The notes beneath the pieces were generated by a model. The model was not told the DNA's origin and did not search any database. It saw only the letters and a program-made list of their open reading frames with translations. DNA of 57,571 bases, the filler included, from Stramenopiles sp. TOSAG23-3 (Eukaryota), in the NCBI GenBank assembly GCA_900128585.1. It is 6 parts of 6 records of this genome, joined end to end, with 100 filler letters (N's around TTAATTAATTAA, not from the genome) between each part and the next. Parts side by side here need not be neighbours in the genome. Positions count along the whole stretch, not along the records: positions 17,260 to 34,411 come from LT642459.1; 5 more parts are not named here. One strand, written 5' to 3'. Position 1 is the first letter of the stretch; each line of letters opens with the position of its first letter. Shown here piece after piece: positions 6,001-42,169 of the stretch. The position numbers and the translations under genes were made by a program.

Positions 6001-9000
6001 CGGAGCTTCCCATACTTGACACAATTTTATTTGCCCGTGCAAATCTTAAATATTTTACATTAGTAAAGAGCTTCATTAGATGTTCTTGGATGGCAGTTGG
6101 ATCTGAAGTCCCTAGTACACTCAGCAGTTCATCATCAGAAATATAATAGAAACGAGGAAAAGAGGCCCGCTTCGTATTTAAATAATCGCTGAGGCTTTTT
6201 TGACAGGAATCTAAATTTGATGCCAATTTTTCTAATGTTTCATAACGTTTGTCCTCGTGACAAGCCCTAACAACATTTCTGTCTTTTTGAGTCTTTGCCA
6301 TTATTCCCTTGAATGTTTTGTCTATATTGTCAAATTTTTTTGCTTCTTCTGGCAACTGCTGCCTAATATCTTCTGCCCCGATAAAAATGCTTTCTAAGTA
6401 CATCCATTTACTTTGTACTCTGAACCATATTTCGATTGTGTCCCCGATAACTTCAAATTTTTTCTCCCAGTTTCGAATTACAGATATGTATGCTGCAGCA
6501 TAGCGCGAACCCGACATTGTTTGAAGGTTGAGCATACCATCTTCTAGATCAAGCTTTATGTCATCGGCAGTAAGAAGTACGTAACTCTTTCCATATTTTT
6601 TCGTACTAAAGCATGTGTCTCGCCAACCTTCTTCGATTTTTTTTAATTCATTTTGTATCTTCATTTCTTGCATTGCTTCCACAACGATTTCTCCGATTTC
6701 ATCAACATATGAACTCAGCCCAGCTTCAAACAAATTTCCTAACGTGAATTTTTTCGGATTCAAATCAAACTTGCACCCGGTTATATCCATTAATTTTACC
6801 CAGTGCCTTTCCTCTAAGGCGTCATTTTTTAGCTGTTCTATTACTGGAACGCCGTCACGAAAACTCAATACTTTTTCTTCCAAAGACCGGTACGTAGACA
6901 GCGTTTTTAATTCCGAGGGTGTCCGTTTTAATTTTATCAGAAAATTTTCTGTTCCGCCATTTATCACAGAAATGTCAAGGTTGCTCCACAGCGTGTCCGA
7001 GAGTGCGTCAACAAAATTCTTAAAGTCCGCATACAGATTATATATCTGCGACAATCGCTTCATCTCAGCGTCAATTCGGCCGATTTCAGGGTACCCAGTT
7101 TTGAAATAATACTCCAGACCAAATAGTACTTCGGCATTGACCAGTTCATCGCGTTCCAATTTCATATCATTTAGTTCACGAGAAAAGTCAGACATCAAAA
7201 CCAACCCGTCTTCTAGTTCAGTTCCAGGAACCCCGGGACCACTTCTATCAAATTTGGAGAACGTTTCCTTTATTTTATCAGCAAATTGTTTCACTTGCAC
7301 TTTTGTTACTTCAGTAAACTCAATTTTGACTTTTTCAAGCCTCATTTCACGAGTTTTGCTCCAGCGACGAAGATCATCCCATTTTTTTGATATACTAAAA
7401 TCTATTTCAACTTGCCACTTTGTTAGTTCCGGGTTTAGAAACACTTTAATAGATTCTGAAAGTACATAGGGGCAGATATTTTCCGTATAGAAACGGTTTG
7501 CTAGCATTTCACCGCATTTCTGAGCTTCATCTTTGGCGGGATAATAACCAATTATCCCATCTGCTAGCGCACCTGTGCCTGTCGGTATATGTACCCCATT
7601 TTGCCGCAGTAGTCGAAACTGCTCTACGACTACAGCAAGTCTAGACCCCATCTCCATTTCGATTTCTGTTATACTTTTCACTTGATTTAGAATACGTTTT
7701 AAAGATAACAAATCTGTCGGTAAGACATCAAGTTCTTTCCGATATTCATCATATAGTTCGCTCAGCCCATTAAGCTCTTCAGTAGCTAGCCCAAGTAATA
7801 AAGAACCGTACTGATCACGCCAATAGAGGGCTTGCCCAGAAATAGAAGAAATTAACGGAGAAGTATCGAGTTGAAGAAAGGAGAACTGTTTCGTGCATGC
7901 CTTGGCATTTACAGATTTGGACAAACTATTGAAAACGCTAAGGCGGGAGTCGAAATAATTTAAACTTGGCATTGAGTCTTTCAATTTTAACAAACGACCT
8001 TTACGTTTCGAATCCCATAGCCCATACTGTTCATCATACGCAGTCCACCCCAGAAGGTATTTATTGACGTTCTCAAAAGCCTGCTGGATAAAAGTATTGA
8101 GTTTTAATTGCATTTGTGCCACCAGAGGATTTATGCAAATATCTTCGTGAAACGAATGCACGTAAACAGGTTCAAAATCACCCATATGTATTGGTTCAGA
8201 AATAATACAACTGCCATCATTCCATCGGGTAAAATTTTTTGAACTCTCAACAACATTTTTTACGATACGTCGAAAATACTTTGATAAATCTGAAAGATTT
8301 GGACTGAGGCCAACATCTCTACCGTTCATAGTAGCTTTCACTTCGCAAATTGGACCAGCATTTTTGTTGCTGAACGCCCCAGGCAACAAAAACAGCTGTT
8401 GCAGAGTCGCCAATGCTTTCAAAATCGTTTGGGTAATAGCGTTGTAAACGCGACGTTCCCAGTACTTATAATATTCTCTCAGCGAAGGGCTGGAGCATGT
8501 ACCTGTGCCAACAACTAGGCTTTCCACTTTCAACAAAATAGAGCCAATACATTTGTACTTCTCTACAAGCACATTCAGCTGTGATGTTCGTATTGTTTCC
8601 ATTTTGTCATAAAATGTGGCCACGTGAGATACATTCCCTCTGATTTCATCCAGTAATACCAAATCTTTCTTCGTAATGGTGTCCAATATTGTTTCAATGC
8701 TAGCGGACTGTTTCCGCACTTGGGTGAGTCGACTAGAAAAAGTTTGTATTGCAGCGTTGCAAGAAACGAGGAAAGTTGGGACATGCAATGAGTTCCAGTT
8801 CAGTCGATCAAACCCAGGCCTAATTGATTCTTGAAGTTCCGCTAATTGTTGACCCAAGACTATTCTTTCGACAGGTATCAAGGAATCAAAAACCCGATGA
8901 TAACGCGCAAGCATTGATTCTAGTTGTTGAACATACGATGCGAATTTTTCTTCCTGAAGAGATACGTTAGCTGCAGCCTCAGGGACAAAAAAACCCATTT

Positions 9001-11041
9001 TATCTAAAGATTTACTTTCACGTATCAACATGACCAATTCTCGTGAAAAGTTTACTTTGTACGGTGGTGCGGGCAGTTGAAAATGCCCAGCAGAGTCTAC
9101 TTTTCCTGGAGGCCCAAGCACGGGTACACGCAAATTTACTGCTGCTATCTCTGCTACATGAGCAGACCACGTTTTATAATGAAAGTGCACATACTCATCA
9201 ATTGTTTTAGCCAATTCAATGTATTTGCCTTTAACGAGTTCACCACGATCTGATTTGAGTAGACTCTCCATCGAACGGAATCGCATTATAGGTTTCTTTA
9301 CCTGGAGAAACAAGGAGTGGGCCCATGCAATTGCCCCGGCAACTTTAGGGTAATTCTTATAAGCAGGTGGGCAAACCTTATGTTCTCGAAAGAGTTTTGT
9401 TGCTATATCTAATTCTATATTATATCGCCCTAATATGTCATCAAATTTTTCCATCATCTGTCGGTTTATAGTTTCTCGGCTCTCAATATTTTGAAACTTT
9501 TGAAGGAGATCAAATGCAGCTTCCGAAGACTTTAAATTTTCAAATGCTGAGTTAATAAAGATTTTTGTCATAGCTTCAATCGCTACTACACGTTCCCGGA
9601 AGTCTTTCATCACTGCATCCCAGCTACTTTTATACGATTCATCAAAGGCATCTTTCACGGCTAAAAATGGTTCGACAATCTTTTGAACTTCACGCATCAT
9701 GGTGTCAATTCCCTCGCTGTCCCCTGTGACAGCTTTTAATTCTGGGCCCAGAAACTTTTGAAACTGGTCTAGTGCTTGTGTAATCTCTAGCAAATCACCA
9801 CATATACGTGCCATATGAGTTGTTTTTTCAAACAGCCGCTTTTTTGCACCACTTTTTTCTATCCTTTCACGAACATTGCGATATGTGGTCTCCCACGCAG
9901 TTAAAATATCTCTGACTTCGACAATAGTTGAAGTAGACAGTTTTGGATTTTCCAGTAAAATTCCAGGCACACGGACTCTCTCTCCGCACCGTCGTGCAAT
10001 CTCTTTTGCTACTAATTCCATCAAAAATACCATTCTTTCATCGGTGTTATAATGCCTAGATATAATCCACACCATGCGAATACCATTCATCATGGATGGC
10101 AGTGTATCTTTAATATTGCAAATATTGCCTTCGTGGATATTCTTAAAATGCCTTTCCAAAGTCGACAGAAACTTTACGTTGTCTTTCGCCTCTACAAACA
10201 TGTTATTAAGTTCCTGAAAGTGGAAGTTAAAACTGTTTAAACCTGGCGCATCGATTAATCGTAAAACCTCCAACATGTTTTGTACCCTTTCCGAATGAAG
10301 TTTTTCAAACAGGGCACTAAGGGCCGCATTTCGATTTTTCCAAAATTCAATCTCAGACAGAGGACCTTGCCCAAAATTGGATGCATGTTTCCCAGTTTCC
10401 TCAGAAATGACCTCTTGGATAACATGCCCCCATACTTCCAATGCAGACTCAAGTTTGCTGCAAGTCGTCCAATCATCCGTAATTTTGCTTGGATCAGTGA
10501 TTTCAACATCTGGAACGTCAAGTTTTGCATCTCCGTTCGTCTGCTGAAGTGCATGCTGCATTTGTGAGACAAACTTTTGAAAAGTCAGGCGAAACTCAGA
10601 AAAGTTATTTTTTGTGTCAATTCCCTCGCCGGTTGTCTCCTTACCACTAAAAATACTCGGGGCATATATTTGTTTTGTCACGTTATTGAGCGCTTCTAAA
10701 GAGGAAGCGCGGATTGTACCAAAGTCAACCAGGCGTGTAGCTACTGAGCCACTGGAAACAAGGCCGTCGGTATTTCTAAGAAAATACACTGCGTCTTTTT
10801 CTATAGTATTTGTAGGCAAACCGTTAAGGGAAGATTTAACTATATGGGCGACACCTAGCTCTTTAACGAGCGTGTCATCTTCGTCAGGAACCTCGGTCCC
10901 GGAAAGGTATAGTAAAAGTATAGAGCCGGCTGACTTGCTACCGAGAAAGGTTTTTAAATGTTGGGGTTCCCAAGCGAACTTGAGGCGACGAACATCACCT
11001 ATTTGCAAAGCTTTTGTAACCTGTTCCCTTATCCATTCCAT
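1..11041 (-). CDS. DNAH10: Axonemal inner-arm dynein heavy chain, I1/f alpha type (DNAH10-like); 3'-truncated at the window/contig edge (~3680 codons seen)
   Basis: ATG at 11041 (MEWIREQVTKAL...) and the codons at the window start (...STGNILDNEELIG) are in the same frame. The ORF track omits it, as expected for a frame with no stop in the window. P-loops: AAA1 GPAGTGKTET (~5345-5375) followed by NCGEGLDY and WGCFDEFNR, AAA2 GPTGGGKS (~4490-4510), AAA3 GLPGTAKT (~3480-3505), AAA4 GVGGSGKQSL (~2420-2450). AAA5 region KLANPHYSPEIMGKTMIINY lies near 210-265. NCGEG is typical of the DNAH10 class. Confidence 0.93.
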   Translation of the reverse strand, partial: MEWIREQVTKALQIGDVRRLKFAWEPQHLKTFLGSKSAGSILLLYLSGTEVPDEDDTLVKELGVAHIVKSSLNGLPTNTIEKDAVYFLRNTDGLVSSGSVATRLVDFGTIRASSLEALNNVTKQIYAPSIFSGKETTGEGIDTKNNFSEFRLTFQKFVSQMQHALQQTNGDAKLDVPDVEITDPSKITDDWTTCSKLESALEVWGHVIQEVISEETGKHASNFGQGPLSEIEFWKNRNAALSALFEKLHSERVQNMLEVLRLIDAPGLNSFNFHFQELNNMFVEAKDNVKFLSTLERHFKNIHEGNICNIKDTLPSMMNGIRMVWIISRHYNTDERMVFLMELVAKEIARRCGERVRVPGILLENPKLSTSTIVEVRDILTAWETTYRNVRERIEKSGAKKRLFEKTTHMARICGDLLEITQALDQFQKFLGPELKAVTGDSEGIDTMMREVQKIVEPFLAVKDAFDESYKSSWDAVMKDFRERVVAIEAMTKIFINSAFENLKSSEAAFDLLQKFQNIESRETINRQMMEKFDDILGRYNIELDIATKLFREHKVCPPAYKNYPKVAGAIAWAHSLFLQVKKPIMRFRSMESLLKSDRGELVKGKYIELAKTIDEYVHFHYKTWSAHVAEIAAVNLRVPVLGPPGKVDSAGHFQLPAPPYKVNFSRELVMLIRESKSLDKMGFFVPEAAANVSLQEEKFASYVQQLESMLARYHRVFDSLIPVERIVLGQQLAELQESIRPGFDRLNWNSLHVPTFLVSCNAAIQTFSSRLTQVRKQSASIETILDTITKKDLVLLDEIRGNVSHVATFYDKMETIRTSQLNVLVEKYKCIGSILLKVESLVVGTGTCSSPSLREYYKYWERRVYNAITQTILKALATLQQLFLLPGAFSNKNAGPICEVKATMNGRDVGLSPNLSDLSKYFRRIVKNVVESSKNFTRWNDGSCIISEPIHMGDFEPVYVHSFHEDICINPLVAQMQLKLNTFIQQAFENVNKYLLGWTAYDEQYGLWDSKRKGRLLKLKDSMPSLNYFDSRLSVFNSLSKSVNAKACTKQFSFLQLDTSPLISSISGQALYWRDQYGSLLLGLATEELNGLSELYDEYRKELDVLPTDLLSLKRILNQVKSITEIEMEMGSRLAVVVEQFRLLRQNGVHIPTGTGALADGIIGYYPAKDEAQKCGEMLANRFYTENICPYVLSESIKVFLNPELTKWQVEIDFSISKKWDDLRRWSKTREMRLEKVKIEFTEVTKVQVKQFADKIKETFSKFDRSGPGVPGTELEDGLVLMSDFSRELNDMKLERDELVNAEVLFGLEYYFKTGYPEIGRIDAEMKRLSQIYNLYADFKNFVDALSDTLWSNLDISVINGGTENFLIKLKRTPSELKTLSTYRSLEEKVLSFRDGVPVIEQLKNDALEERHWVKLMDITGCKFDLNPKKFTLGNLFEAGLSSYVDEIGEIVVEAMQEMKIQNELKKIEEGWRDTCFSTKKYGKSYVLLTADDIKLDLEDGMLNLQTMSGSRYAAAYISVIRNWEKKFEVIGDTIEIWFRVQSKWMYLESIFIGAEDIRQQLPEEAKKFDNIDKTFKGIMAKTQKDRNVVRACHEDKRYETLEKLASNLDSCQKSLSDYLNTKRASFPRFYYISDDELLSVLGTSDPTAIQEHLMKLFTNVKYLRFARANKIVSSMGSSEGEFFEYRMPPAVDGPVENWMTTVENEMQNSLRQITKEGVFSYAKEVREEWVEKCLGMVGLCGSQIWWTWETEDTFRKVKEGDKYAMKNFLTAQNIQLIQLVAKVREKLSRHMRKKANTLLIVDVHARDIIDKFVRDSILDAREFAWESQLRFYWDRDCDDAEIRQCTGRFDYGYEFYGLAGRLVITPLTDRCIMTLTQALTFNLGGSPAGPAGTGKTETVKDLAKGLAIACFVVNCGEGLDYRAMGNIYAGLAMIGAWGCFDEFNRINVEVLSVVAAQIYQIQTALNFGRNTCDIGIGREIYVKKTVGIFVTMNPGYAGRTELPDNLKALFRPVTMVVPDLLQICMIMLFSEGFEDAFILGKKMTTLYKLAKEQLSKQYHYDWGLRALKSVLVLAGSLKREFSDMTEELVLFRALRDMNAPKFIFEDAPLFAGLLADLFPGLHCPRLSFEKLKIAIELDFEQTNKKSSEADVFYKQVDKTIQIYETFQARHTIMVVGPTGGGKSVCIEALQRSCLPAFNDVVKTWYMNAKAQSLVDLYGEMDPVTRDWTDGILSNVFRNMNRPLITGKENEKRWLIFDGDVDALWIENMNSVMDDNKLLTLPNGERIQLQPFTKLAMETFDLQYASPATISRCGMVWVDPKNLGYQPYYEAWARDRSNGDDDIIATLMDSFHSYVKKCILYTLEGIIDGKMKERPSHVIPITSLGMVNQFCNLMNTIAPAAADGITKEDIEAQYVFCCTWAFGGTLVDNSRGPFDEFLKSIAGGPTPSSSFFQSFYDMQEHRWVLWQDIVPKYVQPAPFEYSKVIVPTSDSTLYAYLLKSVVISGRPVLMVGLPGTAKTVTVQHYFNSLNEDKSVSLTINMSSRTSGVDVRTSIEDSTDKRSGKIYGPAMGKQLYCFIDDLNMPFVDTYGTQQPIALLLFLISRNFMYDYKKDLDVRTYRDMNYIGAMGPPGGGRNPVDPRLVQKFSVFNMTPPTEMVLGNIFEAILKTYLEPFGSGVKDEAKKLTKMTLDLYTTLMEKLPATPSKFHYIFNLRDLGRVYQGICQTTEDKCVDRKSLVRLWKHEIDRVFGDRLISDEDLKLLDGLVAKLVKNAYGQFADSVLQQPCLFGDFELAAQRLVEDAEDPRLYGDMGTFVNVRGIFDEILELYNAEKKPMTLVLFEMALTHLTRIHRLIRMPGGHAMLVGVGGSGKQSLSKLATFSCGYSFFEVSLTRGYGETEFREDLKELFKMLATGPTSFLFTDAHVAEESFLENVNNILSTGMVPALFASDEKDALCSLIREEASKKGIIETPDNLWKYFLGVAKNNLHVILAMSPSGETLRVRCRNFPGLVSSTTIDWFFKWPDEALKKVSEFFLQDESSIPNQFRDPISSHMVLAHTSVMEKAEKYKEELRRYYYVTPKNYLDFIANYRQLLRSNFKKSDLSIRRLGGGLAKLEDAATAVDKMSAELAAAKKIVDAKTVDVKALILNIEESTKVANENQIIADAKSKDLAAQAIVIAVEKEKAEEALGEALPALEAAAEALRNINKDDINELKSFANPPKAVNAVTMCVQYLKPTGKENPSAGWAGAKVMMGQGNFLHCLMNYEKDKIKDSWVKPIKKYFKDAEFNVESMKSKSKAAAGMLQWVVAIVKYHEVAKNVEPLRAKVRAMEKAVSQGQKELDATTKLLKELASKLNELDVAFKRADGELKSLVSEAAIMEKRLEAASSLIKGLSSERTRWGKDKEALLQEKGRIVGDSLLGASFLSYLGAFTFEYRELLSSQMWAKDVLDRKIPVTTPFRLEDMLTSDAEKQMWASEGLPSDSSSTQNGMVTVRSSRFPVCIDPQQQAVTWIKNRESKRQLKVKTFNESDFMKHLELAVQFGAAFLFENVGEYIDPMIDPILEKNTYMQGPQKMILLGDKAIEWDDDFRLYLTTKLANPHYSPEIMGKTMIINYGVTMNGLAAQLLDQVVGHERPDLAIQFKQLVDEMSAMANTIVELEDNLLKMLADSTGNILDNEELIG

Positions 11042-25592: not shown

Positions 25593-25937
25593 AGAAGTAC
25601 AAAAAAAATAACTAACTCAAGAAAGGGGAACGAACGCATTCCTTTTAAAATTAAGATTTTAAATATATATTTAAGGATTTTAATTAAATACTTCTTCATG
25701 TTAAAATTATATTTAATATTTATTATTATTAGTCGTCTACTCCTCGTATATATTATCAAAATACAAAATACCACCTTCCCTCTTTTGTACTTCTTTCTTC
25801 CTTTCCTTTAAATTTTATTATTTTAAGTACGAATTATATAGGGCATAACAATATGGAAAAGAGAAGAGAGAGAAGAGGAGAAAAGAAGATTTGTTTTTGT
25901 AATGTTGTGGTGGTGTTGGTGTACGTATATAGAGATT

Positions 25938-26082
25938 CTTTTTCTTCTTTTTCTTTTTCTTTTTCTTCTTCTTCATATTCTTCTTCTTCTTCTTTCTTCT
26001 TCTCTTCTTCTTCTTCTTCTTCTTCTTTTTCTTCTTCTTCTTCTTCTTCTTCTTCTTCTTCTTCTTCTTCTTCTTCTTCTTT
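25938..26082. repeat. (CTT)n / pyrimidine-rich microsatellite
   Basis: Long imperfect CTT array in the divergent intergenic region between the TBC1D23-like and GT genes. Confidence 0.92.
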
Positions 26083-26462
26083 TAAAATTATTTTATTATT
26101 ATTAATATTATCTTCTCCTCTCGCTCTCTCGCTCTCTACTCAATAATTCTCGATCATCAATATAATAATAATAATCAATAATATATTATCAACGAACAAG
26201 AAACGAAAAGTCAAAAACAGTAGAAACAAACAAAGAACAAACAGAAAGAGAGAAATGGAAATGATGTTAAACAGTGGCGAGGATGGAAGTTGTAAACAAG
26301 AAATATCATCGATACCGTGTAGTTGTGTGTTTTTTATAGCTAGCAGATTTATTGCAACGCTTGCACAGAAAGAAGCGTTTGCGTTCGTTTGGGTGCAGGA
26401 AGAATACGCGAGGTGGAACGGACAGTTGGCTTGGTAGGCAGCGTAGGCAGGCAGGCAGGAAC

Positions 26463-29063
26463 ATGGCCTTTCAACAGACGGCTGGGGGCTTTGGGAAGCT
26501 GCCGCTACTGGCTCGGCTTTTGGTGTATGTGGTTACGTTGGCGTGCTTTGGCTATTTTTCTGTAGGGGCACTGTGGTATTTGTTCTCTGCCAGAGGCCAG
26601 GTGACGTCCGCGATCTCAGGTGCACCGACGCCCGTCGAGGAACTCGGCTTAAAAATTTTTGTTTACAGCTTACCACACCGTTTCAACAAAGACCTGTTTC
26701 GTTCCGTGTACAAGAACAAAAAGCGGAAGGGTGGTTACCAGGACCAAATGGCGGAAGGCATCATATTCCAAAACCTTTTGAACAGCCCCGTCCGGACACT
26801 TGACCCCGAAGAGGCAGACCTTTTCTACGTCCCCTTGTTTGCAGCGGCAGCCGTTTCCCAGCTGGTGCACGACCCGGAGAAACGGGAAGGCGCCAGGAGA
26901 CTCGTTTTGGAAGCGCACACGTACATTTCGACAAAATTCGATTATTGGAAGCGTTACAATGGGGCCGATCATGTGTGGGCCTTCACGCACGACCATGGGC
27001 CTTGCACAGACGTCAATTACGAACGTGCGATGGAAAGCGCATTGACACGGGAGTTGCTGCACAAGTTGCGCGACTCCATCTTTTTGACCAACACGGGCGA
27101 CCTCCATTCGCCGTGCTTCAACCCGCTCAAGAGCATCGTCATACCCCCGTATGTGGGCAAACCGCATTTTTTAGAGCTCGCGGCACCCCGCAAGCCCGAC
27201 AGCGAGCACCCCGTCAGTGAAGGCCGGGACATTTTTGCAAGCTTTCGTGGCCAAACGACACTGATCAAAGACCGCGACCCATGGTTTCGGTACATAATGC
27301 TGTACGGGTCCGCCGGCGACAGGGTCCACAACCATGGGAAACAACCAACGCTCGAGCCTTGCTTCGACTGGGCGATGAATGCAAACATGTGCGCAAGCTG
27401 TATGGGCAAGTGCTGCGCCGCCGAGCTGGCGGACCATCGGGTGTATAGCAATGGTGTGCGGCAACGGCTCTTGGCGATGTATGGGGGAAGCAGGAAAAAA
27501 GCGGGGAGGAAGAAAATACTGGTAAGCAGGGAGAAGTCGAAGGATTGGATAGAGGAGATGAAGCGGAGCGTATTTTGCCTCTGCCCAGCAGGCTTCGCAA
27601 AATGGTCGATACGCACGTTTGAGAGCATTATTGCGGGCTGCATCCCCGTCATCATCGCCACCGACCTACAGATGCCGTTTCAAAACTTCGTAGACTGGCA
27701 CTCGATTTCCGTCCAAGTTAAAGAATCGGACGTGTCGAAGTTAGAATTTATTCTCGACGATATTTCTCCTGCCAGGGTCCGGGCAATGCAGGAGAATTTA
27801 AAGTCGGTCCAAACGATGTTTAGCTATTTGGTGACCACGGAGACGGAAGGCTGGGCGTTTACAAATATAATGAACGAGCTTGCAAAACTATCGGCCTTGC
27901 GAAAGACACAGACAAAAGGTCCCCAGAAGAAGGCCCCCTGGAGAAACTGGAGGCCCATCGGGGCCCACAAAGTAAGAAGCGTCCCGTACCCCCCGAGCCA
28001 CTACCCCCCGGTGGACGAGGACAACCGGGATATCTGCCTCGCAACGCAGCTGAGCAGCGACCGCGCAGACCTGCTTTCCCGAATTTTGCTTCGATGGGAG
28101 GGGCCAGTGAGCGCAGCCGTCCTTATGCGCCAAAACGCCGAGGGGTTGGACGAGCAGACGCTGAAGGAAGCATTCAGCGACCGCATCAGCGCGGACCCGT
28201 CGAGGCGGCTAAGTTTTGATTTTCTGTACTACGACGGCGACCACCCCTCCAAGGCGTACCAGCACTACCCCGTCAACAAGCTGCGAAACATGGCACTCCG
28301 CGGGTGCAACACCAAATACTACTTTGTTTTAGACGTCGACTTTTTGCCATCGGACGATGCTTACTTGCACCTGCAGAACCACCTGCCGTTGCTGGAGGGC
28401 AGCGGGCGAAATGCGTTGGTAATCCCAGCGTTCGAGGTGGACGCGGACGTCCTTACCACCGACGTCGACGCGGTCGACAAGGTAAGGCACAAAGAGACAT
28501 TGCGAAAATTGTACATGGTAGACAAAAGGAAGCGGTGGCGGGACACCCCCCGCACTGCTTCCAAGGCCAGGGCGTTCCAGTTGATGCACTATAAAGATGG
28601 CCACCACCCGACGAACACGGAAAAGTGGATGCACACGGACCAACTGTACAGCGTGGATTACAAGTGGGGCTACGAGCCGTACTTGCTGTTGAAACGGCCG
28701 TTCCCGTTATTCGAGGAGTCGTTTGTAGGTTACGGCCAAAACAAAGTTTCGTACGCTTATGAATTGGCTGCAGCTCGCTTCTCGTTCATTGTCATCCCGA
28801 ACGTGTACGTTATACACGTCCATACCGACAAAAGCATCGGCGTGAAAGTAGTGAGTGACACGAACAAATTCAAGATCGACAGGAAGGCAATAGAAATCTT
28901 AAAAAAGAAAAAAGACTTTACGGTAGGGTGGTCGTGTTGGCGCCCCTTCATCAACCGCGTGGACAAAATGTACGGCTTTCGCGCCACGGAGCCATGCTGG
29001 GTCTCCGAATACGTATGGAGAGATGTGAATCTCAAGCACAGGGAGTGCGTGGTAAACGTGTGA
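26463..29063 (+). CDS. Type II membrane two-domain glycosyltransferase: exostosin/GT47 (IRX10-like) + GT49 (LARGE glucuronyltransferase-like)
   Basis: ATG at 26463, then an N-terminal TM. GT47 motifs KIFVYSLP, VRTLDPEEADLFYVP, YWKRYNGADHVWAFTHDHG and SVFCLCPAGFAKWSIRTFESIIAGCIPVII. GT49 motifs LATQLSSDR, WEGPVSAAV, YPVNKLRNMAL, VLDVDFLPS, ALVIPAFE, YEPY and FVGYGQNKVS. Confidence 0.9.
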   Translation: MAFQQTAGGFGKLPLLARLLVYVVTLACFGYFSVGALWYLFSARGQVTSAISGAPTPVEELGLKIFVYSLPHRFNKDLFRSVYKNKKRKGGYQDQMAEGIIFQNLLNSPVRTLDPEEADLFYVPLFAAAAVSQLVHDPEKREGARRLVLEAHTYISTKFDYWKRYNGADHVWAFTHDHGPCTDVNYERAMESALTRELLHKLRDSIFLTNTGDLHSPCFNPLKSIVIPPYVGKPHFLELAAPRKPDSEHPVSEGRDIFASFRGQTTLIKDRDPWFRYIMLYGSAGDRVHNHGKQPTLEPCFDWAMNANMCASCMGKCCAAELADHRVYSNGVRQRLLAMYGGSRKKAGRKKILVSREKSKDWIEEMKRSVFCLCPAGFAKWSIRTFESIIAGCIPVIIATDLQMPFQNFVDWHSISVQVKESDVSKLEFILDDISPARVRAMQENLKSVQTMFSYLVTTETEGWAFTNIMNELAKLSALRKTQTKGPQKKAPWRNWRPIGAHKVRSVPYPPSHYPPVDEDNRDICLATQLSSDRADLLSRILLRWEGPVSAAVLMRQNAEGLDEQTLKEAFSDRISADPSRRLSFDFLYYDGDHPSKAYQHYPVNKLRNMALRGCNTKYYFVLDVDFLPSDDAYLHLQNHLPLLEGSGRNALVIPAFEVDADVLTTDVDAVDKVRHKETLRKLYMVDKRKRWRDTPRTASKARAFQLMHYKDGHHPTNTEKWMHTDQLYSVDYKWGYEPYLLLKRPFPLFEESFVGYGQNKVSYAYELAAARFSFIVIPNVYVIHVHTDKSIGVKVVSDTNKFKIDRKAIEILKKKKDFTVGWSCWRPFINRVDKMYGFRATEPCWVSEYVWRDVNLKHRECVVNV

Positions 29064-29280
29064 CGGGCCCCGAGAAAGAGCAATTTACTGGTGTGATATT
29101 TACGTTTTATTATATTTTGTTGACTATATAATTTGTTTTTTTTATATTTTGTTGAGATTTGTTTTTCATAAATGTTCCGTTTACATATTTATTTGTACAA
29201 AGTAGGTATTATCTAAAGTTGCAACACAGGAGCATGGGGCATGGTTATCTAGAACATCTTTTACTGCAACAAAGGCACAC

Positions 29281-29646
29281 CTACTTGTTGCTTTCTTGCT
29301 CGGGAAGCTTACCCCCCCCCCTCTTTTCTTCATGCCACTTTACATTGTCAGGGTTGATCCTTTGCCGGTTGGACTTGGTCTTTCCACCTCGTAGTATCGC
29401 GTCAAACTTTTTTTCCGTTTCTTCGTCGAACCTCCCAGTTTCCGAGCGAGTTTTGAACATTTGTTTCAATGCTTGATTGTTTCGTCGGGCAGTTTGAACT
29501 TGCCTAGCATAGTTCGTTTCTAAATGTTTTTCGAGTTCCTCCGGAGACTTTTGAGTATACTTCCCATACGCATAGAAAGCCAAAGAAGGGACGCCAAGGA
29601 GCACTATAGTTTGGAACGTTTGGTAGTCCAACTTTCGCCGAGCCAT
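29281..29646 (-). CDS. Small single-TM protein, possibly Cbp4/UQCC3-like complex III assembly factor
   Basis: ATG at 29646 (MARRKLDY). One TM (IVLLGVPSLAFYAYG) followed by KYTQKSPEELEKHL...ARRNNQALKQMF, loosely like yeast Cbp4 (FKYTTPTDQQL...RQSEQQALMKIV). The CDS is likely; the family call is weak. Confidence 0.6.
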   Translation of the reverse strand: MARRKLDYQTFQTIVLLGVPSLAFYAYGKYTQKSPEELEKHLETNYARQVQTARRNNQALKQMFKTRSETGRFDEETEKKFDAILRGGKTKSNRQRINPDNVKWHEEKRGGGKLPEQESNK

Positions 29647-31140
29647 CTGCACACCAGGGCGGAGGGAGGTATTTTATCCTCGCGTCAAAATGTTAAACAC
29701 TCACACAATAAACCACTGTTTTGACACTTTTGACTGGACAGACTAACTCGTTGCTTGTCATCCCACACATGAAAAACATCCTTCGAAGTGGAGTTATTAT
29801 TAAGGAGAGAGAAGAAGAAGAAGCAAGAAGAAAGAACTACTACTTGTTGAAAAAAAATAATTATAATAAAAAAAAAAATGGTGGTCTCGGCCGGTGGTGA
29901 TGTGATGTAATTAATTATAATAAATATATAATAACAACAACAACATAGTCAAAAACAACAACAACAACAAGAAACAACAAAGAGTGTTGTTCTCTTCATC
30001 ATCATTTTATTATTATTTATTAAAATTATTTTTTATTTTTTATTTTTTTTTATTATTCTTCGAATAATAATTTAATAATACAGTTATTATAAAGAGATAT
30101 CTAATGTGTCCCAATGCTGTGTCTATGTTATCTAAGTATAAAATATCTTCTTTTTTTATAAAAATACAATACAACTCAATCGTAATTCTATATTATATTT
30201 TTATTATTTTTTATATTTATTATCACTGTACCCTGTACCCTGTATTACGTACGTATTTTATTTCCAATTGTTTTATTTCTTTTTCTTCTTTTTCTTCTTT
30301 TTTCTTCTTTTTTCTTCTTTTTCTTTTCAAGAAGAGGTTAGAATTAGGGTTTTGAATTATTACCATCATCATAAATACAGGCAATTACTGTTAATGCTGT
30401 ACAGTATAATATTTTATATGTGCTGTAATGGTGTACTGTAAATAATTTTAAAATTCCATTTCGTTCAAAATAGTATGATCATATATGTAATAATAGAAAG
30501 GAATATAATATTGTATTCAACATTAAATAAGATATGATAACCCTAATGGTATTCCAATATTAATGAAGGTTCAACGGCTATACTACTACAACTCCCACAC
30601 TTGTGTGTTTTCATAGGTAAATAAAAGTTTGTATATAGTTATACTATAGTATAATACAAATGGTATAGTTCAATATTATTTTAAAGTACAATATGTATAT
30701 ATTCTAATTGAATAAAATCCTAATGGATCTCGACTTGAACCTGACCGCCATCACATTTGTGTGCCACTTGGTATAATAGGTAAGTAAACCAATCTAATCA
30801 ATATTCACACACATAGTCTTTGGCTCTACACAGCATTGGTTATTTCATTTGTACGAGTGAATCGTATTTATTATTATTATTATATAGGTACAGCATAATA
30901 TATAACAGTGTACAGCTCAAACATCGATAAACTCACACACATTTCTTCTATAATTAAGTATAAGTACATTAAATATGTATTGTATATATAATTATACCTA
31001 TGTATATGATTCATTCTTTTCGTTCGTTCGTTCTACGGCTGTCGTCTGTCTAGTTTCAAGTACGAATTAAATTAAATTCAATGAAGAAGAAAAGATATAG
31101 ATGCTGTGTATATCTAAAATGGAATGTCATCTTGGACCTC

Positions 31141-36877: not shown

Positions 36878-39800
36878 ATGTCTGGGCGTTTGAAGTACAC
36901 GTTCAAAGCTGAGAAGGAGATAGAACTGCACGTCGAAAAAGACACTGTCGTCAAATTGCTTGAGAAGGTTCAGGACGGGAAATGGTACAAGGTTGAAAAT
37001 GAAGGTAAAATAGGGCTTGTTCAAGGGAACTACATGGAAATAATAGAAGAAATTTCGGAGAAACCGAAAGAAGAAACTCCTGCCGAGGAGGCCGAAGCGC
37101 AGGTTGTAGCGGAAACTTCCGTCGAAGCCAAGGAAGAAGCAGCCAGTCAATCGGGGGAAGCACCGCTGGTCAACGTGCAAGGGAAGCAAAAGGCTGTAAT
37201 GAAATATAAATTTGAAGCACAGAAAAGCGAACAACTTTCCGTGGACAAGGGGGTAGAGGTGGTGATTTTACGAAAAGTAAATGCAGGGTGGAACGAAGTT
37301 TATGTCGACGGGAAGTCTGGTCTAGTGCAGGCCAACTACATGGAGGCCCTCGCCCCACAAGAAAGCGAAAAAGTGATCGAAGTAGAAAACCCGAACAGCG
37401 GCTCGGCGACTATAGAAATAGAGGCCAAGGTTGAATCGAAGAGCGATTCCGCGCCAGCTAGCAACGACAAGGCAAAAGCAACGATGAAATTTAAGTTTGA
37501 GGCTCAGAAAGAAGGGGAACTGACGATAGAAAAGGGCGAAGAAGTGATAATTGTAAAGAAGGTAAATGATTTCTGGTACGAGGTTTCTCACGGGGGAAAA
37601 ACTGGGTTGGTTCAGGCCAATTACATGGACGTAAATATTGATAATTCATCACCTGAAGAGAAACAGCCCGAAAACGAAAGCACTGCCATCAAAATACACG
37701 AAGGACAACCCGTGCTGTCGCGTAAGTTGACGGAAAACTTCCACGATGACTTTTCGTTTCAAACGGTTGACCAAAAACTTATCGACAAATGGCTGGAGAA
37801 GACGGATAAACTTTATGAGAAGAAACATAGCCCGTCGGTGCATGTAATCACGCCAATGTCGTGGGACGAGTGGGCAAATGTCGTTCCTTATGTACAAATT
37901 ATTGGGGCATGGGCTTCGTTTGTACGCCTTTCCTCTACATTTTCAACGTTCAGCCGAGACTTTAATTGGTTTTCAATCATATCTTTTGAGATATGGCCTT
38001 CCATAGAGGTTTTCTTCAAGGTCACGGAGGGCAATCCCTACTCCGATTGGGCATCGGGCCTGGAGCCCCTCATATGTTTGATACCTTTGTTAATTCCCCC
38101 ATTGCTCTTCCTCCGCCACTTCTTGAAATGGTGGAAGAGGCACTCTGCGTGCCTGAAGTGGTGCCGAAATCAAACAAAGTCGAAGTACGAGATACTGGAA
38201 GAGGAACTGTCCGACGAGGAAACCGATCTGGAGGGGCACACGGAAGAGGAGTGGGAAAGGAAAAAGCAACAAAGGAGGGAACAAAGGGCCGCGGATGACT
38301 ATAATCGTCAGGCGAGTATGAAATGCTGCTGCTGCATTAGTTGGAGGTACACGCTTTTGCTGCACCACACGCTGTACATTCCGGCGGTTATGGCCAGTTT
38401 TCACGCGATCGATATTGTGTGCAACCGTTTTCGGGAATACTGTGCCTATTTCAGCTTGGTAATATTTGTACTCTGCGGCATTCCCCTGATACTCAACCCG
38501 ATATTGCTAGGTTGCATGACCCAGCAATACTCCCCGAAAGTAGATGCAAATGATCCTGTATTTGGAGAAAGGGGTCACTTGAAAGACCATTCAGATGTCA
38601 AGTACTACGACGAATTGCATCACTCCACAAATCACTTGAACAGCCCTTTCTACTTTTTGTACCGCCCGTTTGCCCGCAAACACAAACTTGGCCGAACGTA
38701 TTACCTGCTCGCTAGGGCAGTGATTGTTTGGTCGCTCTACGAGAGTAATTACAATGGGGATTATGGCATTTTTTTCTTGGTGACGTCGGTGTACTTACTT
38801 CTCCATGTCATCTTTAAAGGCATTTACAATGCCCCCATTTCTAATAGGGTAAACATGCTCACGGCGGTTACTATCTGGCTGTTCGCGTGCTATACGCTGA
38901 TAGTAACAGAAAGTAAAGAGGAGTCCTCCATAGCGAAAATAAAAGACAACGTTTGGCTCTTTGTGCTAGGGATGTGGTATGGTTTCTGGGGCATATGCTT
39001 CTTCCTTAATTTTCGACTGGCGAACCTTTATGCATACTTTAGAACAAAACTTTCTTTTGAAGACACCGAAAGAGAGACGTTGACATCCGATATGAACATC
39101 ATAAAACAGTGGGACCCAGACATTGAGATCAAACACAGGCTCTGGCAACCGTTCTGGAATGCAATGATGAAAAAAAACGTTGTCGGCAAAGAGGTTGCAG
39201 TTCGGTGGCTGGAAATAAAGAAATTGGTAAAAGCCCACGGCTTGACGAAAGCAATCAACCATTTTGATCAAGAGCTTGCACAGCCAGAAATCATCGATGC
39301 CAGAAACTATATCATGTCCACGTGCGAAGGTGTGGATTGCTGGTACGACCCTACTGAGATGAACGAAAAGAAGAAAAAGAAGAAAAAAGCGAAGGGCATC
39401 AAAAGTTTTTTTGGAAAACTAGAGGTGGTTCCTTTTCCCTTCACGTGCTACATGGAATACGATAATGGCGAGTTTTTAGAAATTTTTGACGGCCCGAGCA
39501 TTATCGAACTTGCCGAGCAAAATAAGACTTCTCTAGTGCAGGTTAGAAAAGAGACCAGGCTTACTTTGCGTGCGATGGCGTCGAAGAAAGACGACGTGGT
39601 GCATTTTCCGTTCGAAGAGGAACGGTTTGAGCCCATCGAAGTGAGGGACGGTATAATCAGGGACGTAAAAATGAAGTTAAAGTACGAAGACTGCAAAGTC
39701 ATCATAACCGCGGTCGATGGAAGCAGTGACATAGTAAACAAGGCTGGCTTCACTGTAAAAGCGGTATATAATGATGGTTTCGGCAGGTGCATGTACAAAG

Positions 39801-42169
39801 ACAGAGACTACGAGGTACATGACCGGAGGACCGTGGTGCGGCTGGAGGAGATGGGGATCGATCCAGATTTTCAACCCTCAGAAGAGGACGACATTGAATG
39901 CATTGTCACGAGCGGGGAAATGAAAGAATCGCATCTTCCAACCCTCGAGTACGACGTGAAGACATCAATTTACGAGTACAGAAACGAGCGTTACAAAAAA
40001 AGAGTGGATGAAGCAAAAATGCTGCCCGTAGTGTTTTGGAGCGAAGTATTTAACAACCCTGGCGCGAGCAAAGATTCCGTGAAGGAATGGTTTCTGTCCG
40101 TGAAGGAGCAAAACGCAGAATTGTCGAGCGTTCTAGAAAAAGAAGATGAAGGAATCAATTACATCTTTTCAAGGATGGAAGAAATTCAAGGACACCCCTA
40201 CGCAGAATTGTGGTTTGTATTTTGGCACGATGTGTGGGTGCAAAACAAGCACCTTCGGGCGTTCCGTGGGATGAACCCTTGCTCTAAGAGTGCTCAATCT
40301 TGGTTAAACCCACGTTACGCCTCGTCCCTGTGCTACCACGTCAAAGAGCGCGAAGACCTCGAAGCACTGCTTGAATCGAAAGGAGTTTTGGTGAAAAAGA
40401 AAGACTCAAACGCGCTGTTTAATCCAAGACTGTTAGACCTTTTCTATTTTAAGCTCCGTAAGCTGAAAGAGTGGTCGGAGCTACAGGTCACGACAAAAAT
40501 CCGAAAAATGAAACGCAAGATTGTTCACATGGATACTTTGAAAGAAAAGAAGGCTCATGAACAACTAAAACCAATGCTGCAGCGGGCAGGGCTGCGAAAC
40601 CATTCAGTGAACGGCATGGAGTTCAGTCGCCACATGTTAGAAATTGTATTGATCACTGCTTACGCAAATATTTGGCTCATGCTGATGGGACTGTCGTGTT
40701 TCGTACGACCATGGGCCTGCGTCGTGTCTGAAGAGAATTCGCGGATTCTATTGATTGTGCTACCACCGATTTTAACGTTGGTGATTGGGATTTTAGGAAA
40801 AGTTTTGAAACAGAAGTACCCGAACGGGTTGCCTAATCTATGCCCAAGGAACAAGTTCAAAAGTGCAAAAGTCAACCCAAACAAAGGGGTAAGCCACCTA
40901 AGGGGCACGTCCCCAAGAGACCCCATTCGGTGGTGGGTCGAAGATGAAGGGAAGCAGGAGCACGATATCAACTTCAACGAACACGAAAGCGTTCTCAACG
41001 CTGCCTTGATGACTATTCGAAAGGGAAAGAACTGCGAGGTAGAATATGAATCGGAGCCGCAAAGCAAAGAAGATTGGATGGCGTACGCGAACAAGCACTA
41101 TGCCCTTGCAGAAAAGTGGCTGCTTCTGTTGCCATTGAAAAAGACATATGCGCAGCTTTGCTTCCTTGGTGATCGAAAAGCGTCCAATGCCGCACTCGCG
41201 ATCGCGTCGGACCCGTTGTCTTACGATATTGCAGTAACGGAATTTAAAAAGTTGGCCGAATTGTGGCTTCGACTGCACTCTGATGATATATTGCCGGAAA
41301 CGGAGCAGGAGAACTCGGACAAGAATGCGGCCTTAGCATACCAAAAGATGCTTCTTTGCACACTCACAAAAGGCGATGTGCAGGGGGCAAGCGAAATGAT
41401 TGACAGTACAAAAGCCTACTTTCCTGAAATCGAAACGACAGAGCCGCTTAAACGGTTTCGGCAAGTTCTTACCGAGTTCCATTCTGGGAACAGAACCACG
41501 TTCAAGAATTTAACGATAAAGTGGGAAAACGAGTGGGGCTTGACCCAGTGGTACGTGAAATTGTTTGGGATGGTGCAAAAGCAATGCGACAAGTACGTTG
41601 ACAGGCTCCAAGAAATTTCGAAGCCCGATATGGGGGCAGAGATGGACGGGTGCAGAGCAAACATTAAAATTTTGCTGGTTGGAGCAAAAGGCTGTGGAAA
41701 AACAAATTTTCTGGTGAGATATTTGTACAAAACCTTCGTCTCAAACCCCGCGGTTGTCTTGGCTTCCAAAAAAGAATTCGCAAGAAATGCAGAGGTCGAT
41801 GGAGACTTATTTAAGGTCATTTTAGAAGAAGTAAGTTCTGTCGAAGATTTCAAACTCAAGCGTGAATCGGCCTTGGGGTACTTGTACTTGTACGACGATA
41901 CTGAGGGCACAACTAGCGCCGATCACAAAGCTTGGCTCCAGGCTTTTGATTGGGGGTTCGGAAAAGCGACGATAGTTGGGTCGAAGCTGGACGTTTCTGG
42001 GGATCCAACTGCGGAGCCTCCTGCTGGGATCAAAGAATGGCTGGCAAAGCCCGACAACAGTGCCAAATGTTTTCGAGCATCAGCTAAGTCTGGAGTAAAC
42101 GCCGAAGAATGCATGAACGATGTGGTTAAAAATTGTGCTCAGAAAATACTTCATTTGCACTCTGAATGA
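36878..42169 (+). CDS. Large membrane protein: 3x SH3 + multi-pass TM region + unknown soluble domain + 2 TM + alpha-SNAP-like helical region + C-terminal Ras/Rab-like domain
   Basis: ATG at 36878 opens a single 1763-codon frame. SH3 repeats have W..G..GLVQxNY. About 8-9 hydrophobic segments lie at ~37870-39010. SNAP-like segment YQKMLLCTLTKGDVQGA...FPEIETTE...LTQWYVKLF. GTPase-like motifs KILLVGAKGCGKT, LYLYD, IVGSKLD and SAKSGVN. Confidence 0.85.
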   Translation: MSGRLKYTFKAEKEIELHVEKDTVVKLLEKVQDGKWYKVENEGKIGLVQGNYMEIIEEISEKPKEETPAEEAEAQVVAETSVEAKEEAASQSGEAPLVNVQGKQKAVMKYKFEAQKSEQLSVDKGVEVVILRKVNAGWNEVYVDGKSGLVQANYMEALAPQESEKVIEVENPNSGSATIEIEAKVESKSDSAPASNDKAKATMKFKFEAQKEGELTIEKGEEVIIVKKVNDFWYEVSHGGKTGLVQANYMDVNIDNSSPEEKQPENESTAIKIHEGQPVLSRKLTENFHDDFSFQTVDQKLIDKWLEKTDKLYEKKHSPSVHVITPMSWDEWANVVPYVQIIGAWASFVRLSSTFSTFSRDFNWFSIISFEIWPSIEVFFKVTEGNPYSDWASGLEPLICLIPLLIPPLLFLRHFLKWWKRHSACLKWCRNQTKSKYEILEEELSDEETDLEGHTEEEWERKKQQRREQRAADDYNRQASMKCCCCISWRYTLLLHHTLYIPAVMASFHAIDIVCNRFREYCAYFSLVIFVLCGIPLILNPILLGCMTQQYSPKVDANDPVFGERGHLKDHSDVKYYDELHHSTNHLNSPFYFLYRPFARKHKLGRTYYLLARAVIVWSLYESNYNGDYGIFFLVTSVYLLLHVIFKGIYNAPISNRVNMLTAVTIWLFACYTLIVTESKEESSIAKIKDNVWLFVLGMWYGFWGICFFLNFRLANLYAYFRTKLSFEDTERETLTSDMNIIKQWDPDIEIKHRLWQPFWNAMMKKNVVGKEVAVRWLEIKKLVKAHGLTKAINHFDQELAQPEIIDARNYIMSTCEGVDCWYDPTEMNEKKKKKKKAKGIKSFFGKLEVVPFPFTCYMEYDNGEFLEIFDGPSIIELAEQNKTSLVQVRKETRLTLRAMASKKDDVVHFPFEEERFEPIEVRDGIIRDVKMKLKYEDCKVIITAVDGSSDIVNKAGFTVKAVYNDGFGRCMYKDRDYEVHDRRTVVRLEEMGIDPDFQPSEEDDIECIVTSGEMKESHLPTLEYDVKTSIYEYRNERYKKRVDEAKMLPVVFWSEVFNNPGASKDSVKEWFLSVKEQNAELSSVLEKEDEGINYIFSRMEEIQGHPYAELWFVFWHDVWVQNKHLRAFRGMNPCSKSAQSWLNPRYASSLCYHVKEREDLEALLESKGVLVKKKDSNALFNPRLLDLFYFKLRKLKEWSELQVTTKIRKMKRKIVHMDTLKEKKAHEQLKPMLQRAGLRNHSVNGMEFSRHMLEIVLITAYANIWLMLMGLSCFVRPWACVVSEENSRILLIVLPPILTLVIGILGKVLKQKYPNGLPNLCPRNKFKSAKVNPNKGVSHLRGTSPRDPIRWWVEDEGKQEHDINFNEHESVLNAALMTIRKGKNCEVEYESEPQSKEDWMAYANKHYALAEKWLLLLPLKKTYAQLCFLGDRKASNAALAIASDPLSYDIAVTEFKKLAELWLRLHSDDILPETEQENSDKNAALAYQKMLLCTLTKGDVQGASEMIDSTKAYFPEIETTEPLKRFRQVLTEFHSGNRTTFKNLTIKWENEWGLTQWYVKLFGMVQKQCDKYVDRLQEISKPDMGAEMDGCRANIKILLVGAKGCGKTNFLVRYLYKTFVSNPAVVLASKKEFARNAEVDGDLFKVILEEVSSVEDFKLKRESALGYLYLYDDTEGTTSADHKAWLQAFDWGFGKATIVGSKLDVSGDPTAEPPAGIKEWLAKPDNSAKCFRASAKSGVNAEECMNDVVKNCAQKILHLHSE

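Follow-up and report, generated by a model that had tools for sequence, protein, structure and literature searches.

A single gene joining an exostosin-type GT47 and a LARGE-type GT49 glycosyltransferase domain in Stramenopiles sp. TOSAG23-3: a new family pairing and a possible Golgi-type co-polymerase

The subject of this work is a gene found in a stretch of DNA of 57,571 nucleotides (hereafter "the window", six parts of six records joined end to end) from Stramenopiles sp. TOSAG23-3 (assembly GCA_900128585.1). The gene encodes an 866-residue protein, P0001, in which an N-terminal glycosyltransferase domain of family GT47 is followed by a C-terminal glycosyltransferase domain of family GT49. 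We conclude that this is a real, expressed and apparently functional new pairing of glycosyltransferases within the known design of tandem Golgi enzymes. By analogy with these enzymes we also propose, with a confidence that falls somewhat short of even, that the protein acts as a Golgi-type bifunctional co-polymerase adding two sugars alternately. An earlier note, made from the DNA sequence, had described a transmembrane segment followed, in one frame, by GT47 and GT49 domains that are both complete, the latter with a DXD motif, and this description is confirmed by the open reading frame (ORF), the Pfam matches and the fold matches presented below.

The gene lies in a single open frame on the plus strand (26352..29063), whose earliest ATG, at 26463, gives the 866-residue product. 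Within it the Pfam models PF03016 (Exostosin_GT47; E-value 2.4e-54, 185.1 bits versus a cut-off of 33.4) and PF13896 (Glyco_transf_49; E-value 7.7e-35, 121.2 bits versus a cut-off of 27) both pass their curated thresholds, and since both scores far exceed these cut-offs within a frame of 866 codons, chance can be excluded as the origin of the domains. The domain limits proposed in the earlier note (about 26650-27830 and 28030-28830) sit within those obtained here with hidden Markov models (HMMs), i.e. residues 60-480 and 505-866, and all four motifs that it quoted (RTLDPEEAD, ADHVWAFTHDHG, FCLCPAG and VLDVDF) are present in the translation. The full-length AlphaFold 2 (AF2) model, calculated from a 47-row alignment, has a mean predicted local distance difference test score (pLDDT) of 85.2 and a predicted template modelling score of 0.85; used as a Foldseek query, it retrieves LARGE1 at the top (1.2e-20), with EXT1-EXT2 next. 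At the N-terminus, the 19-residue Kyte-Doolittle windows that exceed 1.6 begin only at residues 10-23, with a peak of 2.04 at residues 19-37, and the AF2 model contains a helix spanning residues 15-45. A hydrophobic peak upstream of GT47 is present also in eight of the ten other fusion proteins checked, and none was found in P0069 and P0071. This would be the type II signal-anchor layout of Golgi glycosyltransferases, and P0001 is accordingly predicted to be a Golgi protein. No N-glycosylation sequon occurs in the 866 residues.

Several lines of evidence indicate that the two domains are encoded by one gene, and we regard the two-gene reading as very unlikely. A word-indexed search scored 7999 candidates, of which 28 reached E <= 1e-3, and five clusters contain both Pfam domains, with query coverages of 95-100% and identities of 60-100% (95-98% and 60-62%, respectively, for the orthologues other than the query itself). 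The more distant P0063 (1102 residues, 33% identity) remains collinear with P0001 from the GT47 domain across the linker to the GT49 domain and the C-terminal tail. An exhaustive search of representative sequences returned 7232 matches at E <= 1e-3 (102 at <= 1e-30); among the best 150 of these 7232, Pfam found both domains in five (P0068, P0063, P0069, P0070 and P0100) of the 39 long proteins scanned. Our own domain HMMs, run over 355 proteins, detected both domains in 54 sequences, which comprise the lineages of the listed fusions plus P0071 and, weakly, P0076. The P0068 cluster includes an MMETSP transcript and a EukProt entry of Rhodomonas abbreviata; because of this transcript, the fusion can be said to exist in a cryptophyte at the transcript level. 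A metagenome contig (L002) likewise carries an uninterrupted ORF of 898 residues with both domains.

Evidence from RNA libraries points in the same direction. The stretch was detected in 20 of the 23 listed runs (11 recorded as RNA; 12 studies), and contigs from four RNA-library runs, each of a different study, were placed on the locus. They match it at >=99%, colinearly and with no joints or gaps along the matches, and the junction between the domains is bridged by contigs of three studies (X1 record 4, 27669-29090; X5 record 11, 27659-28011; X7 record 17, 27654-27906). The region 25800-26509, i.e. the upstream spacer and the first 47 nucleotides of the ORF, is covered by none of the four runs, and 29150-29283 is uncovered in three of them, while X7 covers it (record 20 from 29177). 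Gaps occur also inside the gene for single runs; these are contig data, so the gaps prove nothing. Around the junction itself, an alignment of six fusions reveals the invariant residues W493 and G500, followed by P508, P510, S512 and P515. The idea that the frame is an artefact, produced by two neighbouring genes or by a mis-assembly, thus receives practically no credence from us: apart from the 47 nucleotides at the 5' end of the ORF that the placed contigs leave uncovered, we found no point in its favour, and it is opposed by the lack of a stop codon over the junction, by the recurrence of the fusion on independent contigs and in the cryptophyte transcript, by the invariant residues within the linker and by the bridging contigs of three studies. 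The existence of two separate genes, which the earlier note had named among the findings that would overturn its proposal, is contradicted by the collinear relatives, by the ORF of L002 and by the junction-bridging contigs. The coordinates of the gene and its parts are collected in Table 1.

Table 1. Features of the GT47-GT49 gene and its product, with positions in the window
Feature	Residues	Position	Strand	Basis
Coding sequence, plus stop (29061-29063)	866 aa	26463..29063	+	uninterrupted ORF, no intron
N-terminal hydrophobic segment, read as type II signal anchor	13-40	26499..26582	+	Kyte-Doolittle, AF2
GT47 domain, exostosin-type, GT-B fold	60-480	26640..27902	+	Pfam, family HMM envelope, fold match
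RTLDPEEAD	111-119	26793-26819	+	motif in translation
ADHVWAFTHDHG	168-179	26964-26999	+	motif in translation
Clade-specific Cys-rich insert of about 60 residues, DPWF..MLYG motif	264-327	27252..27443	+	25-row GT47 alignment
FCLCPAG	371-377	27573-27593	+	motif in translation
R384..E387 (SIRTFES), counterparts of EXT1 Arg346/Glu349	384-387	27612..27623	+	profile alignment to EXT1
Inter-domain linker, in frame, partly conserved	481-504	27903..27974	+	alignment of 6 fusions, RNA-library contigs
GT49 domain, LARGE/B4GAT1-type, GT-A fold, with C-terminal Cys/Trp-rich tail	505-866	27975..29060	+	Pfam, HMM, phmmer, structure
VLDVDF, DXD metal/nucleotide-sugar motif (D624, D626)	622-627	28326..28343	+	aligned to LARGE1 SDIDF
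E738-P-Y motif		28674..28682	+	aligned to LARGE1 FEPY; invariant in 6 fusions
H785-V-H787-T-D789, C-terminal His site of GT-A metal centre		28815..28829	+	aligned to LARGE1 IHMPH
C-terminal tail, GWSCW ... EPCWVS ... C motifs	822-866	28926..29060	+	alignment

The GT49 domain resembles LARGE1 in both fold and sequence. Superposition with VIA-align of residues 516-844 of the model on residues 466-752 of LARGE1 (9e1t_A, a complex with uridine diphosphate (UDP)-glucuronic acid) gives a Z-score of 30.4 and a root-mean-square deviation (rmsd) of 2.5 Å over 279 residues, with a sequence identity of 29%; K4CP, the fold family ranked second, reaches only 16.3, and a phmmer comparison of the domain with LARGE1 gives 1e-33. 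The two aspartates of the DXD motif (D624-V-D626) are invariant in the six aligned fusions. According to excerpts of the published work, the corresponding motif of LARGE1 is Asp563-X-Asp565 (PMC9746966) and its D563N/D565N substitution abolishes glucuronate transfer (PMC12514197). Also invariant in the six fusions are H785, H787 and D789, as is the N760-K761 pair in the family. Counting alignment positions, H785 pairs with His705 of LARGE1 and H787 falls one residue ahead of the position of His708, which lies near the Mn2+ ion in LARGE1 (PMC9746966, excerpt). Glu738 may serve as the catalytic base, although this proposal is our own. In the C-terminal tail, residues G822, W823, S824, C825, W826 and C862 are invariant in the six fusions, and the WSCW motif is retained even by relatives devoid of the catalytic motifs. 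GT49 is described as an inverting family (PMC9746966), and its members LARGE and B4GAT1 as adding glucuronic acid (GlcA) to xylose (PMC4227050, PMC4227051, PMC5137251). By analogy with LARGE1/2 and B4GAT1, the donor of the GT49 domain of P0001 is most likely UDP-GlcA. We know of no activity in the GT49 family other than the GlcA transfer carried out by these enzymes.

The GT47 domain, modelled alone from a 25-row alignment (pLDDT 80.5), most resembles EXT1 (7zay_A, residues 111-436; Z-score 24.6, rmsd 2.9 Å over 293 residues) and then EXTL3 (Z-score 21.6); below these stand generic GT-B enzymes, at Z-scores <= 13.9. A profile alignment places FCLVPRGRRLGSFRFLEA opposite the EXT1 segment FCLcPrGfasWspRlfea, by which R384 corresponds to Arg346 and E387 to Glu349; both residues are invariant in the alignment of the six fusions. 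In the excerpts of PMC9675754, EXT1 is reported to bind UDP by Arg280, Arg346, Glu349, Tyr319 and Tyr324, to lose nearly all GlcA transfer upon the R346A and the D162N/D164N substitutions, and to follow an SN2-like, base-catalysed mechanism; a Glu or Asp at the position of Glu349, at the start of helix C-alpha-4, is described as conserved across the characterised GT47 enzymes (PMC9178029, excerpt). The GADH and HD(177)HG motifs of the GT47 domain are conserved in both the fusion and the GT47 alignments, and within the near-invariant HD.G motif, conservation singles out D177 as a candidate for the base. A peculiarity of the domain is the Cys-rich insert, with cysteines at positions 300, 310, 313, 317 and 318. 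It is shared by P0001 and four clade-mates (P0237, P0239, P0072 and P0081) and is absent from all 20 other rows of the alignment, including IRX10 and IRX7/F8H. Low pLDDT values are found at residues 297-312 of the full model and at residues 214-267 of the domain model, i.e. residues 273-326 of the protein.

Conservation of these residues across the fusion family was assessed with 13 aligned fusion sequences. P0001, its four close orthologues and P0063 retain every checked residue of both domains, and P0001 is, by its motifs, of the fully intact kind. The Rhodomonas proteins P0068/P0212 keep the checked GT49 motifs, the HD motif of GT47 and R384/E387, with YND in place of FRG (F261-R262-G263) and with no aligned counterpart of D789. 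P0069 (961 residues, EukProt) and P0070 (1034 residues, from a cluster of 57 members that includes Tara sequences) have degenerated in both domains: in GT49 the DXD motif is replaced by DNG or ENG, EPY by QPL and H785 by T, and in GT47 HD is replaced by NA or HA, R384 by N or G and R262 by A or T. In P0071 and P0076 the loss is confined to the GT49 motifs, those of GT47 being retained. A further GT47-GT49 protein, P0100 (1316 residues), keeps DXD (as D-A-D) and EPY.

These losses raise the question of whether only one domain of P0001 is catalytic, the other being a pseudo-glycosyltransferase that serves as a scaffold, an acceptor-binding module or a dimerisation surface. Such an arrangement has precedents in EXT2 and EXTL3, whose GT47 domains are inactive according to the excerpts of PMC9178029 and PMC9675754, and within the fusion family itself, where the GT49 motifs are gone from P0071 and P0076 and those of both domains from P0069 and P0070. 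However, every checked motif is intact in P0001, in the four close orthologues and in P0063, and even the Rhodomonas protein retains its GT49 motifs, the HD motif and R384/E387 despite the change of FRG to YND, so that we consider a dead domain in P0001 distinctly improbable. The conserved motifs in both domains are consistent with two competent transferases in one chain. The degenerate P0069 and P0070 may, by analogy with EXT2, act as pseudo-enzyme partners; if so, they would provide an independent example of the pairing of active and inactive proteins in glycan polymerases.

The origin of the two domains was analysed with phylogenetic trees. For GT47, 132 candidate rows were reduced to 115 by dropping 17 that covered fewer than 300 HMM positions or spanned more than 650 residues; in the resulting FastTree tree 11 of the 12 fusion domains fall into one 20-row clade with support 100. 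The clade also contains two sulfotransferase-GT47 proteins, one GT47-Stealth protein and some short rows. A separate clade of 25 rows (support 99) unites the six rows of IRX10 type with the 19 of IRX7/F8H type. An IQ-TREE calculation with 53 rows (LG+C20+F+G4, Shimodaira-Hasegawa-like approximate likelihood-ratio support) recovers the fusion clade (19 rows) at 97 and the union of IRX10 and IRX7 at 98. For GT49, a tree of 74 domain rows, calculated with FastTree only and with P0071 omitted for low coverage, places nine of the ten fusion domains in one 15-row clade (support 95) and the GT8-GT49 (LARGE-like) proteins in another group (support 89). The simplest reading, which we regard as provisional, is one old GT47-GT49 fusion that spread over protist lineages, in some of which it decayed. 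P0100, which lies outside the main fusion clades in both trees, was apparently fused independently. Short rows with only a GT47 or only a GT49 domain in the fusion clades (321-447 residues, from contigs of about 1.2-1.5 kb) are possibly fragmentary and were not counted as stand-alone proteins.

The relatives of both domains occur in a variety of contexts. Clade-mates of the GT47 domain are fused to a sulfotransferase (P0079, P0098) or to a Stealth domain (P0161), which may point to a set of interchangeable modules for making sulfated or phosphorylated glycans, and the further architectures among the listed matches comprise PA14-GT47, tandem GT49 and fusions of GT49 with polysaccharide lyase family 14 (PL14). 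In particular, P0062 (from Riccia fluitans), P0135 and P0153 combine tandem GT49 domains with PL14, i.e. a transferase and a lyase in one chain. Shuffling of domains of the GT47 and GT49 families is evidently common in protists.

The trees bear directly on the product suggested in the earlier note, which combined a GT47 domain regarded as a beta-1,4-xylosyltransferase of the IRX10 group with a GlcA-transferring GT49 domain to obtain an alternating xylose/GlcA polymer, a special case of the co-polymerase reading. The best named matches of the GT47 domain are indeed plant IRX7/F8H, IRX10/IRX10L and proteins labelled XGD1, at about 30-36% identity (the names being the labels of the source), the motif FCLCP.G..WS.R..E is common to the domain and to IRX10/IRX7, and the GT49 enzymes with known acceptors, LARGE and B4GAT1, attach GlcA to xylose (PMC4227050, PMC4227051, PMC5137251, as excerpted). 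However, the domain belongs to a separate protist clade (100 in FastTree, 97 in IQ-TREE), its insert is absent from IRX10 and IRX7, and the grouping of the five-member window group with the six IRX10 rows as one clade is rejected by the approximately unbiased (AU) test (log-likelihood difference 80.2, p-AU 0.00065). The tested grouping was that of the earlier note and was chosen with the FastTree tree already seen, and the IRX10 rows were assigned by source names and clustering only. The shared motif is present also in many other GT47 clades of the same alignment. Membership in the IRX10 group must therefore be abandoned, and because the GT47 domain lies outside this group, the argument for xylose as its donor falls with it. 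Moreover, GT47 enzymes use several different donors, which makes clade neighbourhood a weak guide to the sugar transferred. An alternating xylose/GlcA polymer is possible, and yet we regard this particular version as improbable.

What, then, might the fused enzyme do? In our proposal, P0001 would be a type II membrane protein of the Golgi type, the lumenal part of which comprises two inverting glycosyltransferases, both catalytically competent to judge from their motifs: a metal-independent GT-B enzyme (GT47) and a Mn2+- and DXD-dependent GT-A enzyme (GT49). Both domains would work on one and the same glycan, each adding a different sugar in turn, and the two sugars are expected to be beta-linked because GT47 and GT49 are both inverting. 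Repeated alternation, as in the animal enzymes LARGE, EXT1/2 and chondroitin synthase (GT31-GT7), would be the most likely mode, and the product would be a linear beta,beta-linked polymer of disaccharide repeats at the cell surface. The polymerase activity is suggested by the architecture, and the Golgi location, the activity of both domains and the donor sugars are likewise predictions. The analogy has a general basis: the tandem Golgi glycosyltransferases GT47-GT64, GT31-GT7 and GT8-GT49 are all thought to make alternating polysaccharides (PMC9178029, excerpt).

A number of observations weigh against this proposal or at least limit it. In the GT47 domain, the profile alignments cover only the C-terminal half well, and the N-terminal half has no significant alignment to EXT1; consequently, the candidate base of EXT1 (D162/D164) has no mapped equivalent. 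Nor does Arg280 of EXT1 have an exact equivalent: R262, in the near-invariant FRG motif, is two to three positions off. The insert 264-327 is modelled at low confidence. In the GT49 domain, the identity to LARGE1 is only 29%, so its donor could differ, and in general neither donor nor acceptor is legible from the sequence. The RNA-library contigs demonstrate presence, not a single transcript. The degenerate P0069/P0070 and P0071/P0076, as well as EXTL3 and EXT2, illustrate that a two-domain architecture alone is no guarantee of two activities, and bifunctional fusions need not be polymerases.

The last point leads to the most serious competitor of the co-polymerase reading, in which both domains are active and carry out two fixed consecutive steps and no more, e.g. 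to provide a glycoprotein or glycolipid with a disaccharide cap, a side chain or a linker. The structural and residue evidence for such an enzyme is identical to that for a co-polymerase, the sequence contains nothing in favour of repetition, and the fusions of GT47 domains of the same clade to sulfotransferase and Stealth domains fit a modular tailoring toolkit equally well. On the other hand, the tandem Golgi fusions, in the excerpted text of PMC9178029, are thought to make alternating polymers, and in P0001 and its relatives the domains have been kept together with their motifs intact across lineages that differ in up to about 65% of their sequence. We therefore see the two-step enzyme as a tenable but somewhat doubtful alternative, and continue to lean, tentatively, towards the co-polymerase.

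It is tempting to extend the co-polymerase proposal. MAST-4-like stramenopiles and cryptophytes of the sea could have an undescribed glycosaminoglycan-like co-polymerase with P0001 as its catalytic subunit, perhaps operating together with a dead paralogue of the P0069/P0070 type, and its product would be a linear polymer in which beta-GlcA alternates with a second beta-linked sugar; as a whole, this scenario is speculative and, in our opinion, rather unlikely. If it were true, the shuffling of GT47 and GT49 parts would have given rise to the two-domain design of co-polymerases for the fourth time, and the pairing with a dead paralogue would echo the association of the active EXT1 with the partly inactive EXT2. 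The gene is expressed in the marine metatranscriptomes of several studies, and its sources include abundant uncultured flagellates as well as the culturable cryptophyte Rhodomonas. Its presence in these libraries, in uncultured flagellates and in Rhodomonas points to an unknown surface or extracellular polysaccharide of marine plankton.

The window has the look of DNA from an intron-poor eukaryote, with long ORFs on both strands and AT-rich or low-complexity spacers between them. The genes in the window around the locus have housekeeping functions and encode a dynein heavy chain, COPI alpha, a TBC RabGAP, a ubiquinol-cytochrome c chaperone, a phosphagen kinase and EMP70. No cluster of glycan-pathway genes was found among the window neighbours, which is uninformative, as expected for a eukaryote. 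P0001 itself is contained in EukProt, and the label "Stramenopile-MAST_4" is attached to one protein of the cluster at 60% identity; the label does not confirm the lineage of the window. The spacer upstream of the GT47-GT49 gene contains a long pyrimidine-rich low-complexity run (25853-26146 and 25902-26136), one frame of which reads as poly-Ser/Phe; it was treated as a repeat and skipped in the placement of the RNA-library contigs. Directly downstream, on the opposite strand, lies an ORF of 123 residues with no Pfam match (29281-29652, minus strand), contained in X7 record 20 (29177-29757), where the word depth is above that of the glycosyltransferase gene. The ubiquinol-cytochrome c chaperone carries a C-terminal WW domain, an unusual pairing, and this gene occurs near the GT47-GT49 gene both in the window (19472-20482, minus strand) and on the related contig L002 (3118-4236, plus strand), i.e. 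there is partial microsynteny. The dynein heavy chain ORF (window 2-11041, minus strand) is intron-free over 3680 residues and extends past the window end. Another ORF of the window, of 1763 residues (36878-42169, plus strand), has SH3 domains near its N-terminus and a Ras-family GTPase domain at its C-terminal extremity (residues 1597-1753), with a long central part devoid of Pfam matches.

Comparison with the characterised tandem enzymes places P0001 between two of them. The earlier note had claimed that the pairing is unlike that of the known tandem Golgi enzymes, and this holds: in the excerpted text of PMC9178029 the set comprises GT47-GT64, GT31-GT7 and GT8-GT49, and GT47-GT49 is not among them. 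A GT47-GT49 fusion is not described in the literature searched, including the excerpts of PMC9178029, PMC3797821, PMC11468063 and PMC6260743, with CAZy and supplements outside the scope of the search, and no paper was found in it that mentions the accessions PF03016 and PF13896 together.

LARGE1 and LARGE2, the GT8-GT49 co-polymerases of matriglycan, are likewise type II membrane proteins with two glycosyltransferase domains per chain, and their C-terminal GT49 domain has the same fold as that of P0001, with the DXD motif aligned to D563/D565. However, their N-terminal domain is a retaining GT8 xylosyltransferase of the GT-A fold, whereas P0001 has an inverting GT47 domain of the GT-B fold and no Pfam match to PF01501 (GT8). 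The product of P0001 should therefore not be matriglycan, in which alpha-linked xylose alternates with beta-linked GlcA. The GT8-GT49 proteins P0154, P0201 and P0064 also belong to a GT49 clade apart from that of P0001, according to the FastTree tree only. The single-domain beta-1,4-glucuronyltransferase B4GAT1 is a GlcA transferase, too (PMC4227050, PMC4227051, excerpts), and belongs to GT49, the CAZy/Pfam family of the C-terminal domain of P0001.

EXT1 and EXT2, the GT47-GT64 co-polymerases of heparan sulfate, have the same domain order, with an N-terminal GT47 domain of the GT-B fold followed by a GT-A domain, and P0001 resembles EXT1 in the GT47 fold and in having equivalents of Arg346 and Glu349, which bind UDP in EXT1, at an identity of only 18%. 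They differ in the C-terminal domain, which is a retaining GT64 in EXT1/EXT2 and an inverting GT49, with LARGE1 as the best structural match, in P0001; in the relative orientation of the domains (an rmsd of about 20-24 Å when both are aligned together); and in the additional Cys-rich insert in the GT47 domain of P0001. The IRX10/IRX10L and IRX7/FRA8/F8H enzymes of xylan synthesis have the GADH, HD.G and FCLCP.G..WS.R..E motifs in common with P0001, and yet the listed plant enzymes of these types are single-domain proteins of about 360-475 residues that lack the insert 264-327 and form a separate clade. The same domain order as in P0001 is found in the protist proteins P0063, P0068/P0212, P0069, P0070 and P0100. 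The tandem Golgi glycosyltransferases known to make heparan sulfate, chondroitin and matriglycan each employ a fixed pair of families, and in P0001 a domain of the heparan sulfate type is joined to one of the matriglycan type. Because both of these domains are inverting, the linkages of the product should differ from those of all three known polymers.

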